This document shows, in pieces, positions 1-57,461 of a DNA stretch of 64,000 nt. Each line of letters starts with the position of its first letter. The first letter of the stretch is position 1. Where the stretch lies: the sequence record PX880100.1. The stretch is one strand, 5' to 3'. This DNA comes from a phage. Under the pieces are notes generated by a model. That model was not told the origin of the DNA. It worked only from the letters and a program-made list of their open reading frames with translations, and made no database searches. The position numbers and the translations under genes are program-made.

Positions 1-438
1 ATGGCAAGCAATATAAAATATAAACGCGATGCTATATCCCTTATGAGAGACGGAATAAAAAGTCAATATAAAAAAGACTCTCAATGCGCTATCTGCGGTT
101 GTGCTGAAGAATTAGAGCTTCATCATTACCATACGGTGTCTCTACTAGTTAAAAAATTTGCTAAAGAACTCCAGTTGGATTTCACTGACGAAGAAACAGT
201 CCTTTCAAATAGGACGGCATTCTATGATCGATATAGGCATGAGCTAGTAGAAGACACTGTTACCCTTTGTGTACACCATCACCAACTATTACATAAGGTT
301 TACACGAAAGAACCTCCATTATTTTCTGCTAATAAACAGAAAGCATGGGTTCAAAAGCAGAAAGACAAATTACAGAATCCTCAAGAAAAGACACAAGTCA
401 AGACTGAAATAAAATCAGGATTCGCAAGGTTCTTATAA
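1..438 (+). CDS. HNH endonuclease (145 aa), immediately upstream of portal
   Basis: Cys/His-rich HNH-type motifs (CAICGC, ELHHYH, CVHHHQLLHK). ATG sits exactly at window position 1, so the 5' end may be truncated by the window. Stop overlaps the portal start (TAATG). Confidence 0.55.
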   Translation: MASNIKYKRDAISLMRDGIKSQYKKDSQCAICGCAEELELHHYHTVSLLVKKFAKELQLDFTDEETVLSNRTAFYDRYRHELVEDTVTLCVHHHQLLHKVYTKEPPLFSANKQKAWVQKQKDKLQNPQEKTQVKTEIKSGFARFL

Positions 439-26546: not shown

Positions 26547-28385
26547 TTATTCTAAGTAGGAAAATCCTTCTGCATCTTTTTTGACAGTAATCTTATGGGC
26601 TAATGGATGCGTATGCCCATGAGAAACAATGATAGAGTTTAGACTTTCTTCCTCATTTAATAGTTCAACAAGGGTGTCAAGTCCTTTAGTATCAATAAAG
26701 CTAATTACTTCATCAAGGAATAGAAGATTAATATTAACTTTACTAATAGATGTTAGTAGCATTCGAATAGCTAACAGGGTTGCTAGGTTGATTCGACTTT
26801 GCTGACCAGTAGAGCAGTTCTCCATACTGGTACGGTTTCCATCATTGAAGATTACTACCTGTAATTTCGTTTCATCAAGCTCAAATCCAAGTGCGAACTT
26901 ACCACCAGTCATAATAGAAAGGTATTTATTAATTAGCTCTTCAAATACTTTCACACTATGCTCTAGTTTATATCCTACTAGATTCTTTAATGCAGCAATC
27001 AGAATATCGAGATCAGCAACAGCTTCGGATACTCCATCCAGTTTGGAAGTAATCTCGGACATTTCTGCTTCAGCTTTCTCAATCTGCTCTAGTTTCGCTT
27101 TATATTTTGCATTGGCTAACTCAACATTTGCATTATGTTCTTTAGCAATTGCAACCTTAGAACGTCCATCAGCGATTTCCTGTTCTAATTGTCGGATTTG
27201 CACCTGTAGGATTTGCACATTGAGTTCTTCAAAAGAAGCATCACTCATTGAATTTTTGAACTCGTCTCTAGCTACCACTGCTTTATCCAAAGCATCCTTT
27301 GCTCTAGTATACGCAACATACTCAAGTTGTTCTTTCTTCAACTGTTCTAGCTTAGCTTCAAGAGATTGCTTCTCTTTGAACAGAGGATCATATTCTGTTC
27401 TAGCCATATCCATTGCTTTTTGAGCAGCAGTTGTATCTAGATGAGTACCACAGGTAGGGCATTCAGTATTTGAAGCCTCTTGCTTGAACTTCTGATAACG
27501 TTTCTTAACTTCGCCCGCACGTGAGGTCACAATCGTTAGGTCACGCGTAACACTCGAGATCTCTTCATTTTGGTCAGTGGGCGCGGGTAAATTTTTGAAA
27601 GGCTCGAAAGATTGTTCGGCAACTTGTACAGCTTTGTCCAAATTACGCAACTTAGTAATATTAGCCTCTTGAGACTTGGCTAATGCCGCCTTAATTTTCG
27701 ATTCAGTAAGTTCTTGAGCTAATGGTTCTTCATCAAATTCTGGTACTTCTACAGGTTCCTGCAAAGTCCCCAGATTATTCTTTCCATTAAGGATTTTCGT
27801 AATTACAGCCATTTGGCCCTGCAAATTATTTAAGGTATTTGCTATTTCTTTACGGTCAGCCTTAATAGTTTCCGACATTTCTTTATACTGTTCTTGATTG
27901 AACAAGTTAACAAGAAAAGCCTTACGTGTCGCATCTGTTGCTTTTAGAAAGTCTAGATTTGAACCCACTGATTGATAGATTAGTTTAGTGAATGTTTGGA
28001 AGTCACCGCCCATAATCTCTTCAATCATCTTGTATGTTTGGGTTGCCGTATGCCCACTAATATCTTCTCCATTCTTAATAAGAGTTACTTTAGCAGTTGA
28101 TTTAACTACTTTATGCAGTTCGTACTCATCTTCATCTTTCGAGAAGTAAGCGTGCATATCGTATTCTTTTTTCGGAGAAGACCAGGAGAACAGAGCATCC
28201 TTCTTAATACCGCGTGAGTTCTTATTATAAAACAATTCCTCGATAACCGTGGCGATGGTGGATTTCCCTAGTCCATTGCCACCAATTAATTGAGTAACTG
28301 GGTTCTTATCGAAATGAATTACGATGTCCTTACCGTAAGACATAACGTTACTAAATTTTAGTGTCTTAATTGTAATCTTTGACAT
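26547..28385 (-). CDS. SbcC/Rad50-like recombination ATPase (T5 D13-like)
   Basis: Walker A GGNGLGKST near the N-terminus, long coiled-coil middle with a CPTCG zinc hook, C-terminal signature and Walker B (LLFLDEVISFID). Start moved to ATG 28385 (MSKITIKTLKF). Confidence 0.8.
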   Translation of the reverse strand: MSKITIKTLKFSNVMSYGKDIVIHFDKNPVTQLIGGNGLGKSTIATVIEELFYNKNSRGIKKDALFSWSSPKKEYDMHAYFSKDEDEYELHKVVKSTAKVTLIKNGEDISGHTATQTYKMIEEIMGGDFQTFTKLIYQSVGSNLDFLKATDATRKAFLVNLFNQEQYKEMSETIKADRKEIANTLNNLQGQMAVITKILNGKNNLGTLQEPVEVPEFDEEPLAQELTESKIKAALAKSQEANITKLRNLDKAVQVAEQSFEPFKNLPAPTDQNEEISSVTRDLTIVTSRAGEVKKRYQKFKQEASNTECPTCGTHLDTTAAQKAMDMARTEYDPLFKEKQSLEAKLEQLKKEQLEYVAYTRAKDALDKAVVARDEFKNSMSDASFEELNVQILQVQIRQLEQEIADGRSKVAIAKEHNANVELANAKYKAKLEQIEKAEAEMSEITSKLDGVSEAVADLDILIAALKNLVGYKLEHSVKVFEELINKYLSIMTGGKFALGFELDETKLQVVIFNDGNRTSMENCSTGQQSRINLATLLAIRMLLTSISKVNINLLFLDEVISFIDTKGLDTLVELLNEEESLNSIIVSHGHTHPLAHKITVKKDAEGFSYLE

Positions 28386-29343
28386 ATTTCGCAGCTCTAG
28401 CCAAGATTCTATCAATGTCGCCTTGAGATAGCTTCTCGACTTCACGGAAGTAAAGTTCAAGTTCGCCCAGCATATCAAGATCAACAAGATTTAACTTAGC
28501 ATCTTTAGTAACTCGATGGTTAATCTTCTTATCTAATAAATCAGAGTCTTTGATAGACTTTAGTTGAACAACGTCACCAGTAACTTCATAGACTACACGA
28601 TCATAATCACTAGGTTCCATCTCTTCACCAGCTCCGATTGTTTTACGAATCAGTTGTGGTAAATCCCCTAGTTCAATCCATTCTACTTTTAATGTGTCGG
28701 TATCAATGATAAAGCAACCATTTGTACCTTTTGTGCGTTCTCTATGGAACGATGTAGTTAATGGAGAGCCTGGATAGAGGAGTCTAGTAGATCCGATAGT
28801 CTGGCTATTAGTATAAGAATGTAAATCGCCAGCAATTACAGTATTATAACAGTTGTACTTAGTTAGATCAATTTCTGGTTTTACATGTGGAGGGATTTCA
28901 CCACGAACATGCGTGAAACATAGTTTTGATTCAGATGGTTTCCACTTAGACTTATGGATCTCATCATACGGAACAATATCAAATTCAGGGGAACGATATG
29001 GTTTGGTAATTACTTCCCACTTCCCACTAGTTACTTTATTAATAACTCCTGCATAGTGATATAGACATGAAATGGTTTTAGTTAGCATTTCATGATTTCC
29101 AGTAAAGATTTTGCCTGGATGGTCAAGTCTTGACATGAACTGTTCAAGAAGTTCTATTTCTTCTGACGACGGGTCGGCAACATCAAGTATATCACCACCA
29201 GCAATATGAAGATCACAGTTATGATTATGGAATATATCATTTAACCGTTCTCCTAGCATCAGGAAGCGACGCTTCTGCCATTCTTTGGGTATCTTATCTT
29301 GGCCCAGCTTAATATGATGATCAGCACTAAATAGTATTTTCAC
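28366..29343 (-). CDS. SbcD/Mre11-like nuclease (T5 D12-like, 325 aa)
   Basis: Calcineurin-like phosphoesterase motifs (SADHH, GDILD, GNHE, GDLH); upstream of and overlapping the SbcC-like gene. Track start is GTG. Confidence 0.8.
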   Translation of the reverse strand: MKILFSADHHIKLGQDKIPKEWQKRRFLMLGERLNDIFHNHNCDLHIAGGDILDVADPSSEEIELLEQFMSRLDHPGKIFTGNHEMLTKTISCLYHYAGVINKVTSGKWEVITKPYRSPEFDIVPYDEIHKSKWKPSESKLCFTHVRGEIPPHVKPEIDLTKYNCYNTVIAGDLHSYTNSQTIGSTRLLYPGSPLTTSFHRERTKGTNGCFIIDTDTLKVEWIELGDLPQLIRKTIGAGEEMEPSDYDRVVYEVTGDVVQLKSIKDSDLLDKKINHRVTKDAKLNLVDLDMLGELELYFREVEKLSQGDIDRILARAAKYVKDYN

Positions 29344-29803
29344 TTAATAGACTATCATATACTGCATTTGCTACAGTCTCTGCTTCATGTATGGAATCTG
29401 TATATCCATAATGCTTACCTTTAATTTGAACAAAATATCTACCAGTTGAATGTTTTAAGAAAACACCTTTTGGTAATTCTTTATTACCATTCTTGTTTCT
29501 ATTCAACTGATTGCGTGACTTAGAAGAGTCTAGTAAATTATCTATGGCATTATTTAATGGATTCCTATCCTTATGGTCAATTTCTTCTGGAGTATATCCA
29601 TACACATATAAGAAAGCTAGCTGATGTGCTTTATACCTTTTACCATCAATTCGGATTTCCAATCTGATATAGTTATCAGATACCCATACTTCCGTCCCTG
29701 CTATGGAGCCTTTTGATACTCTTCCCCTTGAGACTTTCCATCTAAATATACCCGTTAGAGGATCATAGTCCAATAGCTCTTTAAGTCTATCTTGTGTAAT
29801 CAT
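29327..29803 (-). CDS. HNH homing endonuclease (158 aa)
   Basis: HNH motif YKAHQLAFLYVYGYTPEEIDHKDRNPLNNAIDNL; paralogue of the ORF at 55767-56249; inserted between the SSB-like and SbcD-like genes. Confidence 0.7.
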   Translation of the reverse strand: MITQDRLKELLDYDPLTGIFRWKVSRGRVSKGSIAGTEVWVSDNYIRLEIRIDGKRYKAHQLAFLYVYGYTPEEIDHKDRNPLNNAIDNLLDSSKSRNQLNRNKNGNKELPKGVFLKHSTGRYFVQIKGKHYGYTDSIHEAETVANAVYDSLLSENTI

Positions 29804-29810
29804 AAAGATA

Positions 29811-29834
29811 TAAGAAAAGGGGCCGAAGCCCCTC
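29811..29834 (-). terminator. rho-independent terminator after the SSB-like gene
   Basis: On the minus strand, stem AGGGGC/GCCCCT with TTCG loop followed by TTTTCTT. Confidence 0.55.
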
Positions 29835-29840
29835 TATTTA

Positions 29841-30614
29841 TTAGTCGTCCAGATCGCTTGCAGCTTCTGTGTCAATACCTTTCTGGGAGCCTGCATTGCT
29901 ATTACCAGATTTGGCATCATCATCTTTATTCTCACGACCCTCCATGAAGGCTTGAATTGCTTCTTTCTGCTCTTCATAGGTAGGAACCGGATAGGTTTGT
30001 TCCAGAGAAGGAACTTTTTCGAACTTAATGATGTCGCCATCTTCATCACACATAGCTTCACCGATCAGATCTACGTCTGCAGCATATTGCTTAGATTCTG
30101 CACTGTTAGGATCTTGCAGCTTAATCTGGAACTGCATAGCAGCAATCTGCTGTACATCATACTCAGTATCGAAACCTTTACCTTTTTTCTCGATAGAAAT
30201 ATCAATATCAAACGGAGTTGCCAGATTCAACTGCTTCATGATAGACTGGATGCCTTTCAGAATCGTAGCCTTGACTTCCATTACTTTCAGTTTGTTATCA
30301 GAACGGTCGATAACAAAAGCGATATAGTTTTTCTTCGGTTTCAGCGGAACACGATTACCATCTTTATCCAGCTCTTTCTCGAAGAAGCCCATCTCATGAA
30401 CCGGATCAGCTTTACCACGAACAAAGCTCTCTTTGTCACGGTTAAAACGGAGACATTCGAAAGGAGCTACATTACCTTCTTTATTAGTCAGCCAATAGAC
30501 ATAACGTGGAAGAACACCAGAAACGATACGAACACGGGTGATACCGTTGTTGAACTTCAGGAATTCGATTTTATCGTTAGAACCGCCAGTAGTTTCGCCC
30601 CAAGACTTAGCCAT
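29841..30614 (-). CDS. putative single-stranded DNA-binding protein (257 aa)
   Basis: Sits in the replication gene cluster; acidic C-terminal tail (DTEAASDLDD) as in phage and bacterial SSBs. No fold-level confirmation. Confidence 0.4.
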   Translation of the reverse strand: MAKSWGETTGGSNDKIEFLKFNNGITRVRIVSGVLPRYVYWLTNKEGNVAPFECLRFNRDKESFVRGKADPVHEMGFFEKELDKDGNRVPLKPKKNYIAFVIDRSDNKLKVMEVKATILKGIQSIMKQLNLATPFDIDISIEKKGKGFDTEYDVQQIAAMQFQIKLQDPNSAESKQYAADVDLIGEAMCDEDGDIIKFEKVPSLEQTYPVPTYEEQKEAIQAFMEGRENKDDDAKSGNSNAGSQKGIDTEAASDLDD

Positions 30615-52258: not shown

Positions 52259-53011
52259 ATGGGAAAAGCACGTCAAAAAAGAGAGAACCGCAATGGTTCA
52301 AGAAAGCGTGGCAACAAGTATGAGAATAACGTAATTCAGGCTGATTTTTCTAATGATTACGCTAACCCAGTTGCTAAATCCCTAGTAGGTAAAAACCGCG
52401 AGCAAAAATCATATATCAATATGATCAAGAACAACACAGTGACTGTGGGTATTGGTGAGCCAGGTACAGGTAAAACCTTTATTCCGTCTGTTCTTGCAGC
52501 TCAGGAACTTGTAGACATTCACTCAGATATTGAGCAAGTGATCCTCGTACGTCCTAATGAACCTCTAGGTAAGTCTCTTGGTATGCTTCCTGGTGATCTA
52601 GCGGAAAAGCTAGAGCCTTGGTTGGAGCCAATAGCTGATGGTATGAAATGGGCCATCGGCGATCATGCATATAAAGGATATGTCGAACGTCAGAAAATTA
52701 AATTTTTGGCTATCGAACATGCTCGTGGCAGAACTTTCAACAACTCCTATGTAATTGTCGACGAAGCTCAGAATATTTCCGTTGAGGCAATGATTTGTCT
52801 CCTAACTCGTGTAGGGCAAGACTGCCGTTTAATTATCTGCGGAGATATAGCTCAGAAAGACATTAAAGGTGACTCAGGTCTAGCACTCCTTATGGAAGTC
52901 TATGAGAAATACGAAAATGCCCCCTTCTCAATGATCGAATTGATTGATAACGTTCGTTCTGTTGAGTCTAAAGCATTCTATGATATTTTTAAAGACATGG
53001 GGAAGGTGTAA
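52259..53011 (+). CDS. phoH: PhoH-like ATPase (250 aa)
   Basis: Walker A GEPGTGKTF and Walker B YVIVDEAQN; start moved from track GTG 52250 to ATG 52259. Confidence 0.8.
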   Translation: MGKARQKRENRNGSRKRGNKYENNVIQADFSNDYANPVAKSLVGKNREQKSYINMIKNNTVTVGIGEPGTGKTFIPSVLAAQELVDIHSDIEQVILVRPNEPLGKSLGMLPGDLAEKLEPWLEPIADGMKWAIGDHAYKGYVERQKIKFLAIEHARGRTFNNSYVIVDEAQNISVEAMICLLTRVGQDCRLIICGDIAQKDIKGDSGLALLMEVYEKYENAPFSMIELIDNVRSVESKAFYDIFKDMGKV

Positions 53012-53012
53012 T

Positions 53013-53255
53013 ATGGGAAACGTCGTTCATCTGAGCCGTAAAACTAAAATACATCGTACTTCACTGAGTGCTGCTAATATGATTACACGTAAGGAAGGGG
53101 AAGAAAGTCCTAAGACAACCCTAGCGTGGAAAATTGTAACCTCAAATCCAAATAAACCATTCAATTATAACGAGCTAAGCACCTCTATAGATATTCTATT
53201 AAAAGAAGTAGCTAGAGCTAAAGTAATTGAACAAGCTAAAAAGCTAGACTGGTAA
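53013..53255 (+). CDS. hypothetical protein (80 aa)
   Basis: ATG at 53013 directly after the phoH stop with GGGGAAGG upstream; the longer track ORF (from 52944) overlaps phoH in another frame. Confidence 0.3.
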   Translation: MGNVVHLSRKTKIHRTSLSAANMITRKEGEESPKTTLAWKIVTSNPNKPFNYNELSTSIDILLKEVARAKVIEQAKKLDW

Positions 53256-53376
53256 TATACAGGGCCTGGGTATGAAAATACTCGGGCCTTTTCTATCAGA
53301 AAATTTTATTTGCCTAATGACCGATAATAAAGTAGAATATTCCTTAAATCCTGATAACTATAAAAAGGAAAGCCAA

Positions 53377-55707
53377 ATGAGCCATCGCATTGAAAAAGTA
53401 ATTAAACGTGACGGTACTGTAGAAGACTTTGCTCCTGAAAAACTCAATGGTTGGGCAGAGTATGGTTGCAAAACAGTTGATGTAAGTTGGTCAGCCATTA
53501 CTATGGCTGCTCAAAAAACTCTACCTAAAGGGGTTGTAGATTCCGATACTCTGATGGACGCATTAATTAAGGCTGCCGAAAGTCTTATCAAAGATAACCC
53601 AGCATATGATGTGCCCGCAAAGGAATTACGTCTTGCGCAAATGCGTAAACGTCTTTATGACTCTTTCGAACCGCCTTCTCTGCGCTTCTTCCACGACCAT
53701 ATGGTTAGCGTAGGTGCATGGGAAGACATGAGTGCATGGATTACCGATGAGCAATTTGAAGCTCTGAATCAGGTTATCGACCATGATCGTGACCGTCTTT
53801 TTACTAGTGGTGGACTGAAGCAGTTCTTTGATAAGTATTCCCGGCGTAACATAGCCACTGGTGAAATTTATGAAACTCCGCAGTTTGCCTACATGGGTAT
53901 GGCAATGGCGATGCTATCTCAACCTAACTGGACAATTCTAGATGCAATCGACCTCTACAACGCAATGTCACTCCACAAAATCAACGTTCCTACGCCGCCA
54001 CTGGTTGGTCTGCGCTCTAGTGACCGTGGATTTGCTAGTTGCTGCCTCGTGGATTCCACTGACACGTTGGATTCAATCGACACCGCCGAGCACATCGTCT
54101 TCAAAATGGTCGCAGCCAGAGCGGGAATCGGGTATCATCTTGAAAGCCGATCAATTGCTGATCCGGTGCGAAATGGGGCATTCCCGCATTCCGGAAAACT
54201 GCCATATTATCGACACATTGACCGCTCAGTAAAGGCTAATACTCAGCAAACTCGTGGTGGTTCTGCTACAGTGTCTTATCCATACTTCGATCCTGAAATC
54301 ATTCAATTGATGCAGGTTAAGCAACAACGTGCTACAGATGAGAATAAAATCGATAAGATGGATTATTCTCTGAGCTTCAACAATCTTTTGTTAAAACGTT
54401 ATCTGAAAAATGAAGATATTACGCTAATGTCATACTTCTATGCTCCAGAAGTTCATGAAGCGTTTTATAGTGATGACGAGGCTAAATTTGAAGAAATCTA
54501 CGTGGCAGCGGAGAAACGTGTGGCATCTCTTACAAAGATCGACCACGAAGGAAAAACAGTTCCAGCAGCTCCTAAAGTCTGTGCAAAAGAAATCCTAGAT
54601 ACTTGGCTACGTATCCGAATGGAAACAGGACGTATGTATGCTCATCACATCGGGGAATCTAATCGTCACGGTAACTTCCTTGATCCGATCCGTATGACAA
54701 ACCTTTGTGTTGAAATTACTCAGCCTACACGCCCGTTCCATCATATCACAGAGCTGTATAAGACAAAAGAGCAGCTTGATCAAATGAAGCCGGAGGATAT
54801 TGGTGAAGTATCTCTGTGTAACTTAGGTGGTGTTGTACTTGGACGCATGGAATCTCTGGCTGAGTGGGAAAAAACTTGCTACATCCTTCTGAAATTCGTT
54901 GATACAATTATTGAAATTCAGGATTATCCATTCCCAACTATGGAATATACGGCTAAGAAACGTCGTAATGTTGGTATTGGCCTGATGAACGCAGCAGGTG
55001 CAATGGCAGCAGAAGGTCTGGCTTATGAAGGTATTGAAGCCCGTAACTGGATTCACCGTGAGGCTGAAAAACTGTCTTACTTTCTGCATAAAGCCTCTGT
55101 ACGCCTAGCTAAAGAACAGGGTGCATGTGAGTGGTTTGATCGTACTAAACCATCTAAAGGAATTCTGGTAATCGACACTTACAAGAAAACTGTTGATGAA
55201 CTGGTATCCGTAGGTCTAGAAATGGATTGGGAGTCTCTGCGTGCAGATATTCTGAAATATGGTATGCGTAACTCTGTTCTGACTGCTCAGATGCCGGGAG
55301 AAAGTTCTTCTGTTCTGTTAGGTGTTACTAACTCTATTGAACCGCCTCGTAAGATTGTATCTATCAAAGGTAGTGCAGTGAATAAAGTAATTGCAATTGC
55401 TCCGGGTGCAACCGATTGGGAAACGTTAATGAGCTATAAACTGGCTTATGATGTAGATCGTATTGAGTGGATCAAATGGGTAGCAACTATGCAGAAATTC
55501 TTCAGTCAGTCTATCAGTACGAATATGTACTATGACTACACCAAGTTTGAGAATGAAATCATTCCTGGCCCAGTAGTAGTTCGTGATTTCATGACTGCTG
55601 TTAAGTATGGTTGGAAGACTTTCTATTACGCAAACTTCAACACCGCTAATGGTGGTGGTGCAGGAGAAGAATCCGCAGGCTGCGCTTCTGGTGGTTGTAC
55701 CATCTAA
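53377..55707 (+). CDS. nrdA: ribonucleoside-diphosphate reductase large subunit (776 aa)
   Basis: N-terminal ATP-cone (MSHRIEKVIKRDGTVEDF), class I active-site blocks (CNLGGV-like SLCNLGGVVL) and C-terminal redox Cys pair (CASGGC); start moved to ATG 53377 with RBS AAAAAGGAAAG. Confidence 0.9.
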   Translation: MSHRIEKVIKRDGTVEDFAPEKLNGWAEYGCKTVDVSWSAITMAAQKTLPKGVVDSDTLMDALIKAAESLIKDNPAYDVPAKELRLAQMRKRLYDSFEPPSLRFFHDHMVSVGAWEDMSAWITDEQFEALNQVIDHDRDRLFTSGGLKQFFDKYSRRNIATGEIYETPQFAYMGMAMAMLSQPNWTILDAIDLYNAMSLHKINVPTPPLVGLRSSDRGFASCCLVDSTDTLDSIDTAEHIVFKMVAARAGIGYHLESRSIADPVRNGAFPHSGKLPYYRHIDRSVKANTQQTRGGSATVSYPYFDPEIIQLMQVKQQRATDENKIDKMDYSLSFNNLLLKRYLKNEDITLMSYFYAPEVHEAFYSDDEAKFEEIYVAAEKRVASLTKIDHEGKTVPAAPKVCAKEILDTWLRIRMETGRMYAHHIGESNRHGNFLDPIRMTNLCVEITQPTRPFHHITELYKTKEQLDQMKPEDIGEVSLCNLGGVVLGRMESLAEWEKTCYILLKFVDTIIEIQDYPFPTMEYTAKKRRNVGIGLMNAAGAMAAEGLAYEGIEARNWIHREAEKLSYFLHKASVRLAKEQGACEWFDRTKPSKGILVIDTYKKTVDELVSVGLEMDWESLRADILKYGMRNSVLTAQMPGESSSVLLGVTNSIEPPRKIVSIKGSAVNKVIAIAPGATDWETLMSYKLAYDVDRIEWIKWVATMQKFFSQSISTNMYYDYTKFENEIIPGPVVVRDFMTAVKYGWKTFYYANFNTANGGGAGEESAGCASGGCTI

Positions 55708-55715
55708 TATTAACA

Positions 55716-55738
55716 AGGGGACGTATGTCCCCTTTATT
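55716..55738 (+). terminator. rho-independent terminator after nrdA
   Basis: 7-bp stem AGGGGAC/GTCCCCT with GTAT loop followed by TTATT. Confidence 0.6.
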
Positions 55739-55766
55739 AGGCCTTTTATGGCTGTAATTTTAAATT

Positions 55767-56249
55767 ATGGAAGAAAAATACAAAGAAATAGCGGGGTTAT
55801 TTGATTATAATCCAGAAACAGGGATATTTACCCATAAAGCTAGAGAAGATAAATCCTTCAATACTAGATTTGCTGGCAAAGAGGCTGGTTCTCTAGAAAA
55901 ATGCTCTGGATATATTGTAATGCAAGTAAAAGGCACTAAGTATTACGCGCATATCCTAGCATTCCTTATCGTTAATGGGTATATTCCAAAAGAAGTAGAT
56001 CACGATAATAGAATACGGCATGATAACCGAGCTATTAATTTAAAGGCCTCTGACAGACACAGTAATGGTAAAAATGTCGGGGCGCACAAAGATAATAAAT
56101 TAGGTATTAAAAATATTCACCAAAAAGCTAGTGGATCTTACCAGGTACAGATAGCCCGTAAAGGTGTAAAATATACTAAAACATTCAAAGAACTTGAGGA
56201 TGCTATAGAGTGGCGCGATATGAAACTATTGGAGCTTGATAGTTTATAA
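55767..56249 (+). CDS. HNH homing endonuclease (160 aa), free-standing between nrdA and nrdB
   Basis: HNH motif YAHILAFLIVNGYIPKEVDHDNRIRHDNRAINL; N-terminus (DYNPETGIFTHK) parallels the paralogue at 29327-29803 (DYDPLTGIFRWK). Confidence 0.7.
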   Translation: MEEKYKEIAGLFDYNPETGIFTHKAREDKSFNTRFAGKEAGSLEKCSGYIVMQVKGTKYYAHILAFLIVNGYIPKEVDHDNRIRHDNRAINLKASDRHSNGKNVGAHKDNKLGIKNIHQKASGSYQVQIARKGVKYTKTFKELEDAIEWRDMKLLELDSL

Positions 56250-56255
56250 TTTTAC

Positions 56256-56284
56256 TTGCTAATCGCTACCTGATTTGCTATAAT
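56256..56284 (+). promoter_or_regulatory. sigma70-type promoter for nrdB
   Basis: TTGCTA, 17-bp spacer, TATAAT; RBS GAGAAAGAGGAAAA before ATG 56316; the -35 lies just downstream of the HNH stop. Confidence 0.6.
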
Positions 56285-56315
56285 ATTCCTGAAATAGTGA
56301 GAAAGAGGAAAATCA

Positions 56316-57461
56316 ATGACTACTTTACTAAACCTGAATTGGGATCATACTAACGCTGATCTTTTCCTGGGCGATTCTCTAGGTATCGCAGATTATGTAC
56401 GTGTAGCACATCCAGAACTAGAACGTCTGGCACTTCTGCAACGCTCTCAATTTTGGACTGAAACTGAAATCAGTCTGGAAGCAGATAAGAAACAATGGCC
56501 CAATCTCCCACGTGAAATCCAGGAAATCACACTCCTGAACTTAGCATGGCAGACTCAAACAGATTCCTTTATCAGTCGTGCTCCTGAAGCAGCTATTATG
56601 CCGCTTGTAAGCCGTCCAGAATTGGAAGGTATGCTCAAGCAGTGGAGCTATTTTGAAGACCTGCATAGTCGTGCTTATAGTAATATTATTCGTAATGTGC
56701 TGACTGATCCAGCAGAATTTATTGATTCTGTAACCAAAAACCAAGAAGCATTCGCACGTATCGCTGATTCTGTTGAGCTGTTCGATGAACTGTACCAGTT
56801 AGGTCAGTATTTCATCGCGGTACGTGATCATCGTGGTGACAATACATATCCAGAAACTGAGTTCCCTGAAGTTAAGCGTGAAACTCAGGCTAAACTGTTA
56901 GATGCTTATTTTGCAATCTACGGTCTGGAAGCAATGCAGTTCTACGCATCCTTTGCATGTACTTTTGCTCTAGCAGAGAACGATATTCTGCAAGGTATTG
57001 CTAAAAATCTGCAATTAATCGCTAAAGATGAGGCTCTGCACACCCAGATGTCTAAAACAATCATCCAGATTATGTTCCAGCAGTTTGACAAAGATCTGGT
57101 AGATGAAGCAGTGGCTAAAGCACCAGCACAGCTCCTGAAAACTCTAAAAACTGAGATTGAATGGGGTCATTTCATTTTCAAAGGTCGTAGTCTGATTGGT
57201 TTGAATGCAGAACTTCTAGAAGAATACTTGTACTTTGTGGGGCGTAATGCATTTATGCACATTGGTGTAGAATGGCCTAGTCACTTACCAGTAATCACTA
57301 AAAACCCTATTCCGTGGATCATGAACTGGTTGGATACTACTTCTCTACAGCCTGCTCCACAAGAAATCCAGATTGGTGCAGCCTACCGTGTAGGTCAGGT
57401 AACTGAGACCTCTACTGATACTCTGGAAGATCTGGGCAATGAATTTGGAGATTTCCTATGA
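56316..57461 (+). CDS. nrdB: ribonucleoside-diphosphate reductase small subunit (381 aa)
   Basis: Di-iron/tyrosyl radical subunit blocks (FEDLHSRAYSNII; EALHTQM) and correct position after nrdA. Confidence 0.85.
   Translation: MTTLLNLNWDHTNADLFLGDSLGIADYVRVAHPELERLALLQRSQFWTETEISLEADKKQWPNLPREIQEITLLNLAWQTQTDSFISRAPEAAIMPLVSRPELEGMLKQWSYFEDLHSRAYSNIIRNVLTDPAEFIDSVTKNQEAFARIADSVELFDELYQLGQYFIAVRDHRGDNTYPETEFPEVKRETQAKLLDAYFAIYGLEAMQFYASFACTFALAENDILQGIAKNLQLIAKDEALHTQMSKTIIQIMFQQFDKDLVDEAVAKAPAQLLKTLKTEIEWGHFIFKGRSLIGLNAELLEEYLYFVGRNAFMHIGVEWPSHLPVITKNPIPWIMNWLDTTSLQPAPQEIQIGAAYRVGQVTETSTDTLEDLGNEFGDFL

Follow-up and report, generated by a model that had tools for sequence, protein, structure and literature searches.

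The gene located between the ribonucleotide reductase genes nrdA and nrdB of a T5-like phage (Tequintavirus; 64,000 nucleotides of record PX880100.1, the whole of which is hereafter called the window) is likely to be a free-standing homing endonuclease gene, HNH-A, carried on a cassette of approximately 540 bp, with a paralogue of the same kind, HNH-B, at the D11-D12 junction and with a third HNH gene, ORF 1-438, that represents the unrelated nickase SciA. The initial annotation, which took all three genes as signs of endonuclease mobility, placed each of them correctly; its view of mobility is borne out for HNH-A and HNH-B, found respectively in 48 of about 440-530 and in 9 of 525 T5-like records (these counts and those below include GenBank/RefSeq duplicates and clonal isolates), but not for ORF 1-438, which has orthologues in 517 of 593 relatives. 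HNH-A and HNH-B are counted as mobile because they are not universal among the relatives: the comparison of presence and absence proposed in that annotation shows both to be polymorphic at fixed sites in otherwise syntenic genomes, and their mobility is further indicated by unrelated HNH_3 lineages in the same slots of other phages and by a sharp tract of identity shared by phages EPS7 and phiR2-01.

The region around HNH-A includes the following features:
53272..55707, plus strand: nrdA, large subunit of the class Ia ribonucleotide reductase, left neighbor of HNH-A (Pfam Ribonuc_red_lgC, 9.6e-119).
55672..55707, plus strand: last ~36 nt of nrdA, encoding ..SAGCASGGCTI and the stop codon (alignment with the empty-site locus L027).
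55715..55734, plus strand: 5'-terminal stem-loop of the type A cassette, AAGGGGAC-GTAT-GTCCCCTT (spacer alignments, RNA fold).
55767..56249, plus strand: HNH-A, free-standing HNH_3 endonuclease gene, 160 aa (Pfam and PHROG).
56256..56284, plus strand: nrdB promoter TTGCTA-17-TATAAT (promoter scan, junction alignments).
56316..57461, plus strand: nrdB, small subunit of ribonucleotide reductase, right neighbor of HNH-A (Pfam Ribonuc_red_sm, 3.7e-36).

HNH-A is an intact ORF, the occupant denoted type A of the nrdA-nrdB spacer, with the ATG 59 nt past the nrdA stop codon (55707) and the stop codon 66 nt short of the nrdB ATG (56316). The protein matches the Pfam family HNH_3 (PF13392; E 5.6e-9, 35.9 bits) above the curated gathering score of 24.8, which is exceeded by HNH-B as well, matches PHROG 99 (E 3.9e-49), and shows 100% identity to a protein of phage FGS017 annotated as ‘HNH endonuclease’. 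In an alignment of HNH-A with eight database homologues and HNH-B, residues D78, H79, N91, N100 and N103 are invariant and the catalytic D-H ... N ... N signature of the beta-beta-alpha-metal motif is conserved. A regex and phmmer scan of the window ORFs of at least 60 aa detected no further HNH or GIY-YIG genes.

In the AF2 model of HNH-A (pLDDT 87.9), which was built on a shallow alignment because the word-indexed protein search returned only 8 homologues, the catalytic motif maps to strand 76-79, strand 92-95 and helix 97-103. The best fold match of the model in the PDB, followed by AP2 domains, is I-HmuI, the nicking homing endonuclease of Bacillus phage SPO1 (PDB 1U3E); this Foldseek match, to the N-terminal and HNH part, has a probability of 1.0 over 101 columns with an rmsd of 3.0 but is otherwise modest (E 0.04, TM 0.43, 24% identity). 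Both proteins possess a compact D-H...N...N core without a zinc-cysteine site and, judging by the model, HNH-A appears to consist of an I-HmuI-like N-terminal part and HNH core joined to an AP2-like C-terminal domain. AP2-like domains are commonly fused to HNH endonucleases as a DNA-binding module, and the C-terminal DNA-binding modules of I-HmuI differ from an AP2-like domain such as that of HNH-A; furthermore, I-HmuI is intron-encoded whereas HNH-A is free-standing. The AP2-like domain is visible in the structure model only and not in profile searches: when the N- and C-terminal parts of both HNH proteins were searched separately against Pfam and NCBIfam, no AP2, NUMOD or other DNA-binding domains emerged, and a sequence search of the PDB with HNH-A returned nothing at E up to 1. 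The predicted AP2-like fold, along with the location of the gene between the nrdA terminator and the nrdB promoter, brings up the alternative that HNH-A is mainly a DNA-binding regulator of the nrd operon rather than a nuclease. This alternative is highly improbable given that nrdA and nrdB are expressed in most relatives without HNH-A and that the HNH catalytic motif is conserved.

Orthologues of HNH-A with the same junctions are encoded by phages EPS7, FFH_1, SP01, phiR2-01, FGS017 and Kenya-K44, where they are annotated as ‘H-N-H endonuclease F-TflVI’ or ‘homing endonuclease’. The Kenya-K44 gene is 98.8% identical to the window gene at the DNA level, and the remaining carrier records (~42) mostly show ~86% DNA and 90-95% protein identity to it. 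Neither HNH-A nor HNH-B gained close relatives beyond the GenBank isolates when used to scan IMG/VR. A 330-bp annotation in phage chee130_1 looked like a decayed endonuclease gene and was rejected as such, the ORF being intact and the annotation too short. Between alleles, the orthologues show dN/dS of ~0.05 at dS of ~1, so that HNH-A is a real gene and not a chance ORF, and every allele sampled has a full-length ORF that retains the catalytic residues.

By this allele comparison, the window copy of HNH-A is under purifying selection, and selection of such strength could equally reflect a function that benefits the phage. Under that alternative, the HNH genes would be domesticated, beneficial nucleases that might either attack co-infecting relatives, through marker exclusion or interference competition, or work on host DNA or on DNA in replication, with their spread a by-product rather than the outcome of selfish homing. 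The strong purifying selection (dN/dS ~0.05) fits this explanation, as do the literature report that the T5 enzyme HegG is toxic and DNA-damaging when expressed alone and the finding that an intron-encoded endonuclease aids competition between co-infecting phages (PMC11620839). However, most of the close and fully viable relatives lack these HNH genes, one T5-like phage is reported to carry no homing endonucleases at all (PMC4319617), and site-specific occupancy of slots along with co-conversion tracts, as described below, is what homing predicts. A primarily beneficial role, which overlaps with homing and is compatible with it, is considered unlikely, and homing endonucleases remain the preferred identification of both HNH-A and HNH-B.

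The nrdA-nrdB spacer is a hotspot of such genes. Most T5-like records have an empty site, with a spacer of 106-107 bp in several hundred of them, and in addition to this empty state at least four HNH_3 lineages occupy two insertion points: that of type A is upstream of the nrdB promoter, and that of types B (T5 hegH), C and D, represented in 75, 33 and 34 records, respectively, is downstream of it. A 621-bp spacer (locus L024) that had been taken for gene-free in fact encodes a fourth HNH_3 type with a GTG start codon. Types B, C and D each come with their own nrdB 5' allele; the window nrdB, in a comparison of these alleles, is of the kind characteristic of genomes that have an empty site or type A. 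Of 14 type A spacers examined, none contains a B, C or D gene, and type A and types B/C/D appear mutually exclusive. Phage SP01, in which the type A cassette stands beside a B-type nrdB 5' end, shows what looks like the footprint of a replacement. Phages of the BASEL collection include empty sites, carriers of type D and carriers of the type 2 occupant of the D11-D12 slot.

The junctions of the type A insertion are well defined. The cassette of ~540 bp, comprising the upstream hairpin and the ORF, lies past the nrdA stop codon and ahead of the nrdB promoter. On the left, alignments of empty and occupied spacers place the type A stem-loop at the position of the canonical nrdA terminator hairpin of empty-site phages; on the right, the nrdB promoter marks the boundary, with the HNH-A stop codon as the last inserted element. 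The promoter and terminator scan detected no promoter-like site between the stem-loop (55715..55734) and the HNH-A ATG.

The cassette is associated with a change in the adjacent coding sequence. The window is identical to the empty-site locus L027 until about -36 of nrdA, and 10 positions differ beyond this point. The recoding associated with type A consists of indels and substitutions immediately ahead of the Cys pair in the C-terminal tail of NrdA, which is flexible and redox-active. The non-standard tail is present in 14 of 14 type A genomes, and EEAAGC in 21 of 24 others, in a sample in which the association between tail and cassette amounts to approximately three independent lineages. The tail allele co-varies with the type A cassette and not with the flanks, which makes the last ~36 nt of nrdA, on sequence grounds, a candidate target of the endonuclease in empty alleles and a candidate source of immunity in the window genome. 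The same association could result from hitch-hiking in a naturally variable, flexible NrdA linker. An odd NrdA tail is also found in an empty-site phage (L018).

Comparison of type A genomes points to the horizontal spread of HNH-A with co-conversion of flanking markers. EPS7 and phiR2-01 are 98% identical from about -99 nt in nrdA to the nrdB ribosome-binding site, compared with 78-82% in the flanks, a sharp tract that looks like the product of co-conversion. The window and FFH_1 are discordant in the opposite sense, with 94-96% identity in the flanks, 75% in the nrdA tail and 84% in the cassette, and the window HNH-A allele is itself a mosaic, A1-like in the 5' part and A2-like in the 3' half, which matches the S124 allele (A2). 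General homologous recombination among mosaic phages could yield similar tracts without any endonuclease, and a related explanation would have the HNH genes as inactive passengers, former endonucleases that are moved by ordinary homologous recombination and persist in tolerant intergenic sites. T5-like genomes are indeed mosaic, the best match of the window varying by region among FGS017, OSYSP and slur09, and T4 I-TevIII provides a precedent for a defunct endonuclease that is passively carried (PMC2790892). Nevertheless, the passenger explanation is very unlikely: the full-length ORF and the catalytic residues are intact in all sampled alleles, dN/dS of ~0.05 at saturating dS is not expected of a dead gene, and the convergence of four lineages on two precise junctions within a 106-bp spacer argues for targeted insertion.

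The initial annotation compared HNH-A with mobE of phage T4, and the HNH gene in the nrdA-nrdB slot of T5-like phages had previously been called a mobE counterpart (Niu et al., 2012; PMC3326045). The parallel holds for position, MobE also being encoded by a free-standing gene of the HNH superfamily between nrdA and nrdB, but not for family: MobE and HNH-A show no detectable similarity (BLASTP E 1.8), and MobE matches PF01844 rather than PF13392, so that homology between the two was rejected and, by these sequence comparisons, they appear to have occupied the nrd slot independently. The T4 mobE gene lacks a promoter and is co-transcribed with nrdA under the limitation of a hairpin terminator, and MobE introduces a nick into a relative's ribonucleotide reductase gene, its own gene being over-inherited along with adjacent DNA (PMC2790892). 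By analogy, HNH-A, with an upstream hairpin and no promoter-like site, probably shares this lifestyle. The target of MobE is the 5' region of nrdB, whereas the polymorphisms linked to type A point to the 3' end of nrdA, and types B, C and D of T5-like phages, with respect to the nrdB 5' end, are closer to MobE than type A is.

The nearest known occupants of the same spacer, T5 hegH (T5.095, ‘putative H-N-H endonuclease P-TflVIII’) and the ORF96-type HNH gene of AKFV33, encode HNH_3 proteins of a size similar to that of HNH-A, although the T5 HegH protein is only 36% identical to it. The arrangement also differs: hegH and the genes of types C and D are situated beyond the nrdB promoter, take the place of the nrdB 5' UTR and end at or overlap the nrdB ATG, whereas the type A cassette precedes the promoter, substitutes for the nrdA terminator and comes with an nrdA 3' tail of its own. 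The literature searched contained neither an experimental paper on the nrd-slot enzymes (F-TflVI, HegH) nor a biochemical characterization of HNH-A orthologues; T5 is credited with nine HNH enzymes in a 2026 preprint.

These observations suggest the following scheme, in which we infer active mobility of, and cleavage by, HNH-A and HNH-B from the genomic patterns. The apparently promoterless HNH-A would be weakly expressed from nrdA transcripts that read through the hairpin, as has been demonstrated experimentally for T4 mobE. When a cassette-free relative infects the same cell, the enzyme would nick or cut the empty allele within or close to the final ~40-100 nt of nrdA or in the adjacent spacer, and recombinational repair off cassette-bearing genomes would copy the cassette and short flanking tracts, in keeping with the pattern observed; the recoded nrdA tail, given its association with the cassette, may protect the donor. 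A broader possibility, which we put forward only tentatively, is that the nrdA-nrdB spacer is a two-site arena, contested by at least four HNH_3 lineages, in which type A targets the NrdA-tail coding region and drives its recoding, the target of types B, C and D is the 5' end of nrdB in the manner of MobE, and the two classes are mutually exclusive. If true, this would be a compact natural system for competition and succession among homing endonucleases and a case in which endonucleases drive the diversification of an essential enzyme.

Local differences between T5-like genomes are recognized to stem mainly from free-standing HNH homing endonuclease genes (PMC10644984), and the presence of mobile HNH genes in a T5-like phage is real but ordinary and already described, with small importance beyond correct annotation. 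The nrd slot is experimentally tractable, since four lineages, two insertion points and an empty state can be told apart and the co-conversion tracts are sharp, and together with phages of the BASEL collection it could serve for studies of homing, of immunity at the target site and of competition between endonucleases in T5-like phages; no experiments on these three subjects at the nrd slot are reported in the literature searched.

The second site, at which a paralogue had been recognized between the SbcD-like and SSB-like genes, comprises the following features:
28366..29343, minus strand: D12, SbcD-like nuclease subunit.
29327..29803, minus strand: HNH-B, paralogous HNH_3 endonuclease gene, 158 aa (Pfam, PHROG, BLASTP).
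29804..29840, minus strand: spacer between D11 and HNH-B, with the D11 terminator hairpin GGGGC-TTCG-GCCCC.
29841-30614: D11/SSB, flanking HNH-B.

HNH-B matches HNH_3 (E 3.1e-12, 46.4 bits) and PHROG 99 (6.6e-50) and is 35% identical to HNH-A (BLASTP 2e-19). Its site is the 36-bp D11-D12 spacer: the HNH-B ATG occupies the position of the D12 ATG of empty-site phages, the D11 terminator hairpin is kept from the empty-site arrangement, and the last 17 nt of HNH-B overlap the GTG start codon of D12, an overlap that had been pointed out in the earlier reading. The beginning of D12 is recoded, with GTG-AAA-ATA-CTA in the window against ATG-AGA-ATA-TTA in empty-site phages, and the junction allele of T5 or LmqsSP1, ATGAGAATATTA, is GTGAAAATACTA in the window. 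HNH-B would act in the same manner as HNH-A, having apparently taken over the translation start of D12 and supplied a new GTG start. A second type of occupant is present in this slot in 29 records, and the R2K replacement and the synonymous change of L4 in D12 accompany both occupants, so the recoded codons 2 and 4 are candidate determinants of immunity. A decayed D11-D12 endonuclease was suspected in phage SHSML-45, whose annotated CDS is only 285 bp long, and was rejected: the CDS is annotated too short, and the actual ORF of 176 aa is intact. The IMG/VR scan with HNH-B retrieved only 38-48%-identical genes in unrelated contigs.

The third HNH gene is of a different nature:
1..438, plus strand: orthologue of T5 SciA, 145 aa, HNH/His-Me finger protein with a zinc site (PDB, Foldseek).

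This ORF abuts the portal gene, as noted in the initial annotation, its stop codon overlapping the portal ATG at 438. The protein matches PDB entries 9QGV/9QGX over its full length (residues 1-145; phmmer E 1e-79), and its structural alignment with T5 SciA has a TM score of 0.97 at 82% identity (Foldseek); the identification rests on these PDB entries because the literature searched contained no experimental paper on SciA. The two proteins share the catalytic H42 and the position between terminase and portal genes, with no notable difference, and C29-x2-C32, H41-H42, C90 and H94/H98 are invariant in 48 homologues. The protein has no match in the Pfam copy searched and no similarity to HNH-A or HNH-B; its family, PF26848, occurs in 114 protein clusters. 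Sequence and structure comparisons thus identify ORF 1-438 as the orthologue of the site-specific nicking endonuclease SciA and as a core gene across Demerecviridae, which, being conserved, provides no evidence of endonuclease mobility and should be annotated as the SciA nickase rather than counted as a mobile element. The 517 orthologues, detected at a query coverage of at least 80%, include those of distant Klebsiella T5-like phages at ~67% identity, and the search in the likewise distant Proteus and Vibrio T5-like phages gave partial matches; in the relatives, the SciA gene is always flanked by the genes for the large terminase and the portal protein.

The HNH gene that the initial annotation placed in the nrdA-nrdB gap is indeed present: an open reading frame (ORF) with a match to the HNH_3 family, HNH-A, has ribonucleotide reductase (RNR) genes on both sides, 59 nt after the nrdA stop codon and 66 nt ahead of nrdB.

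53272-55707, + strand: nrdA (Ribonuc_red_lgC, E 1e-118)
55767-56249, + strand: HNH-A, 160 aa (Pfam HNH_3, E 5.6e-9, over the gathering score; PHROG 99 'HNH endonuclease', E 3.9e-49)
56316-57461, + strand: nrdB (Ribonuc_red_sm, E 4e-36)

Judged from its sequence, the phage is T5-like (Demerecviridae, Tequintavirus). In a collection search, its 5-kb nrd region is 96% identical to that of Salmonella phage vB_Si_CECAV_FGS017 and 94-97% identical to those of many Escherichia and Salmonella T5-like phages. The genome is mosaic, because the best-matching phage changes from region to region (OSYSP for 1-900, 99.4%; slur09 for 29100-30100, 98.3%). For nrdA, the longest ORF (811 aa) has its start at 53272, the start annotated in T5 and FGS017; the BASEL annotation of DaisyDussoix puts it 15 codons further in (796 aa). 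Between phoH and nrdA, a small ORF (52944-53255; counterparts T5.097 and 481-735 of a relative's locus, L002) is labelled 'tail length tape measure protein' (PHROG 5357) in several RefSeq and Pharokka-style records; because the ORF lies in the early nucleotide-metabolism region, we doubt this label, which is almost certainly a propagated misannotation.

The AF2 model of HNH-A (pLDDT 87.9) begins at the N-terminus with a region of helix and sheet, continues with a beta-beta-alpha core that contains D78-H79, N91 and N100/N103, and ends in a sheet of three strands with a helix. Among PDB structures, the model best matches the nicking homing endonuclease I-HmuI (probability 1.0, 101 columns, a modest E of 0.04). 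The next matches, also modest, are plant AP2 DNA-binding domains, which the C-terminal part may resemble; no AP2 domain was detected by Pfam at the sequence level.

The nrdA-nrdB spacer was compared across 31 loci and then across eight further loci with the same occupant as the window (type A). In its common state, the spacer is empty and 106-107 bp long: the nrdA stop is followed by a canonical terminator hairpin (AAGGAGATC-TTCG-GGTCTCCTT, then TTTCTTT), the nrdB promoter TTGCTA-17-TATAAT, a 5' UTR with the RBS, and the nrdB ATG. In the window, the type A cassette, that is, its own stem-loop (55715-55734) and the ORF, takes the place of the terminator segment, and the right edge of the insertion is exactly the HNH-A stop codon, directly ahead of the promoter at 56256-56284. 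Three other HNH_3 lineages occupy the spacer: type B, represented by T5 hegH/T5.095 'P-TflVIII' (174 aa, TTG start, 36% identity to HNH-A); type C (165 aa; for example AKFV33 ORF96); and type D (~173 aa, GTG start; BSP22A, IrmaTschudi). These three share an insertion point directly 3' of TATAATAT, downstream of the nrdB promoter, with the 5' UTR replaced and the gene end at or overlapping the nrdB ATG. Because these junctions differ from those of type A, a single 106-bp spacer accommodates at least four endonuclease lineages at two insertion points. None of 14 type A spacers examined contains a type B, C or D gene as well. In Salmonella phage vB_SenS_SB6 (MK809530; locus L058, 135-915), the type A cassette is partly duplicated in tandem, the first copy comprising the leader and the first ~90 codons of the HNH gene and ending within the catalytic motif (..DNRAI), and the second being complete; the duplication could be real or an assembly artefact.

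The presence/absence comparison among T5-like relatives that had been proposed as a check supports mobility. Among the about 530 records of the phage collection with nrdA-nrdB, type A is found in 48, type B in 75, type C in 33 and type D in 34, counts that take in GenBank/RefSeq duplicates and near-clonal isolates and are thus rough frequencies rather than independent events. Movement of the cassette is also visible in the alignments. Between the window and FFH_1, the flanks are 94-96% identical, the last 60 nt of nrdA 75% and the cassette 84%. Between phiR2-01 and EPS7, identity is 80% in nrdA and 86% in nrdB but reaches 98% in the nrdA tail and 97.6% in the cassette: base by base, 67 of the 302 initial positions differ, followed by only 13 of ~688. 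The near-identical tract begins 99 nt ahead of the nrdA stop, takes in cassette and promoter and ends ~15 nt short of the nrdB ATG, beyond which the two phages are divergent again; this is the pattern that would be expected of repair-mediated copying with co-conversion of the flanks. The alleles of type A are old and constrained: the window allele is separated from A1, the common allele, by a dS of about 1.0, with dN/dS about 0.05, whereas the flanking RNR genes are only a few percent apart. The window allele, found elsewhere only in FGS017 and Kenya-K44, is a mosaic, with a 5' third that is A1-like (80-95%) and a 3' half that matches the A2 allele of phage S124 at 96-100% identity; in A2, the leader and the N-terminus are unrelated.

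Each of types B, C and D is linked to a distinct nrdB allele over the first ~260 nt; deeper in the gene, identity to the window returns. Salmonella phage SP01 (locus L029) carries a type A cassette beside a B-type nrdB 5' end; its nrdB +1 to +260 is 93-95% identical to the type B (T5 hegH)-linked allele and only 84% to that of the window. This arrangement is most simply read as one endonuclease lineage succeeding another and looks like a replacement footprint.

The alleles linked to types B, C and D also suggest a putative target in nrdB, as experimentally demonstrated for T4 MobE. For type A, the NrdA C-terminal linker before the terminal Cys pair is non-standard in 14/14 genomes examined (EESAGC, EEAAAGC, EEAAAAGC, EETAAGC, ETTGCS), an association that amounts to about three independent cassette lineages; EEAAGC is present in 21/24 genomes without type A. 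Between the window and its closest empty-site backbone (L027), nrdA differences are confined to the last ~36 nt. From these data we infer a possible target in the empty allele, at the 3' end of nrdA or in the terminator region, with immunity via recoding; the linker is likely to be tolerant of change regardless. In a 109,306-bp T5-like phage (IMG/VR copy; locus L018, 152-3394), nrdA is a 1080-aa ORF with two intein-like insertions, one at the active-site motif NLC|VEITQPT with a LAGLIDADG-type motif inside (LEGYLDADGC), and the other farther upstream, ahead of RGGSATVSY; in T5-like phages, both inteins and free-standing HNH genes thus target RNR genes. The NrdA tail of this phage is also unusual (EEAAAAGC), and the window nrdA (811 aa) has neither insertion.

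The slot is, as the initial annotation noted, analogous to that of T4 mobE, but MobE belongs to another Pfam family and has no similarity to HNH-A; the resemblance is convergent. A promoter scan found no sigma-70-like promoter in the interval from the nrdA stop to the HNH-A ATG; within 55400-56500, the only promoter-like site is the nrdB promoter, downstream of HNH-A. RNA folding predicts a stable hairpin with a poor U-tract upstream of the gene, and inspection of the sequence revealed no clear Shine-Dalgarno motif. The likeliest route would be low-level expression of HNH-A via read-through from nrdA, the route demonstrated for T4 mobE, which has no promoter, is co-transcribed with nrdA and is held down by a terminator hairpin (PMC2790892). 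Unlike type A, which lies ahead of the nrdB promoter, types B, C and D are located behind it as the first gene of the operon.

The gene described as a paralogue of HNH-A, HNH-B, is one in the family sense (35% identity, E 2e-19), and it overlaps the start of the SbcD-like gene D12, whose GTG lies within the last 17 nt of HNH-B.

28366-29343: D12, metallophosphoesterase, SbcD-like
29327-29803, - strand: HNH-B, 158 aa (HNH_3, E 3e-12)
29841-30614: D11, PHROG 'single strand DNA binding protein'

T5 and most relatives have a 36-bp spacer with a terminator hairpin between D11 and D12, and D12 starts ATG-AGA-ATA-TTA. In the window, the hairpin is retained, HNH-B starts at the position expected for the D12 ATG, and D12 has a new start at 29343-29341, read as GTG-AAA-ATA-CTA. 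HNH-B is found in only 9 of about 525 records, eight at 97-98% identity and one, in VAH1, a 73% variant. In 29 records (including rutana, phC17, SHSML-45, HildyBeyeler and Shivani), the slot holds another HNH_3 gene of 176 aa that starts with ATGAGAA, apparently re-employing the original D12 start; D12 itself has a new ATG, which overlaps the stop of this gene and is likewise followed by AAA-ATA-CTC. The same recoding of D12 codons 2 and 4 is thus linked with both occupants and is a candidate immunity change.

The mobile-element reading is well supported for HNH-A and HNH-B, and the finding is real, ordinary and already described. Niu et al. (2012; PMC3326045) described the HNH gene in the nrdA-nrdB spacer of T5 and AKFV33, termed the region a hotspot, drawing the mobE analogy, and reported that homing endonuclease number differs among T5-like phages. 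Most local differences between T5-like genomes are due to homing endonuclease genes (BF23 genome paper, PMC10644984), phage Stitch reportedly has none, versus nine in T5 (PMC4319617), and HNH-A orthologues already carry the labels 'homing endonuclease' or 'F-TflVI'. No experimental work on the T5 nrd-slot enzymes was found in the literature searched. What is added here is the detail of the hotspot, namely two insertion points, four lineages, co-conversion tracts and a mosaic allele, together with the candidate immunity changes in NrdA and D12.

The proposal of endonuclease mobility is supported for HNH-A and HNH-B, by their polymorphic slots and the HNH-A cassette tracts, but not for the third gene cited in its favor, ORF 1-438 (+ strand), which does adjoin the portal gene, overlapping its ATG, but is a core gene. 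It is present in 517/593 matching records and, by the initial annotation's own refuting condition of universal presence, provides no evidence of mobility. It shows no similarity to HNH-A or HNH-B in sequence comparison and no match in the local Pfam copy. Its AF2 model (48 homologues, pLDDT 86.9) superposes with a TM of 0.97 and 82% identity on PDB 9QGV/9QGX ('SciA endonuclease from Escherichia phage T5 in complex with GCGC DNA'; depositors' molecule name 'Nicking endonuclease'), and a plain sequence search matches SciA over the full length (E 1e-79). H42, mutated in these structures, is present, and C29, C32, H41, H42, C90, H94 and H98 are invariant across the family (PF26848, 114 protein clusters). 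Among the matching records are those of Klebsiella T5-like phages (about 67% DNA identity); in Proteus and Vibrio phages, the matches are partial. The gene is always flanked by the large terminase and portal genes. ORF 1-438 is the conserved SciA nickase and not a homing endonuclease. An ORF scan of the window found no HNH or GIY-YIG genes beyond these three.

T5 st0 (AY692264; locus L044, 978-1811) has an additional 834-bp ORF, T5p150, between the large terminase gene and sciA, which is missing in DaisyDussoix (L043), and in the IrisVonRoten and ESCO30 records a 'putative homing endonuclease' is annotated beside the nicking endonuclease. The terminase-sciA gap is probably a further polymorphic endonuclease slot; the window begins just downstream, at the sciA ATG. 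Finally, T5-like Enterobacteria phage sequence (95-99% identity) appears under the names 'Listeria phage LM 4-14-1', 'Listeria phage LM 4-11-1' and 'Campylobacter phage C13/A134', which are probably contaminated or mislabelled submissions.
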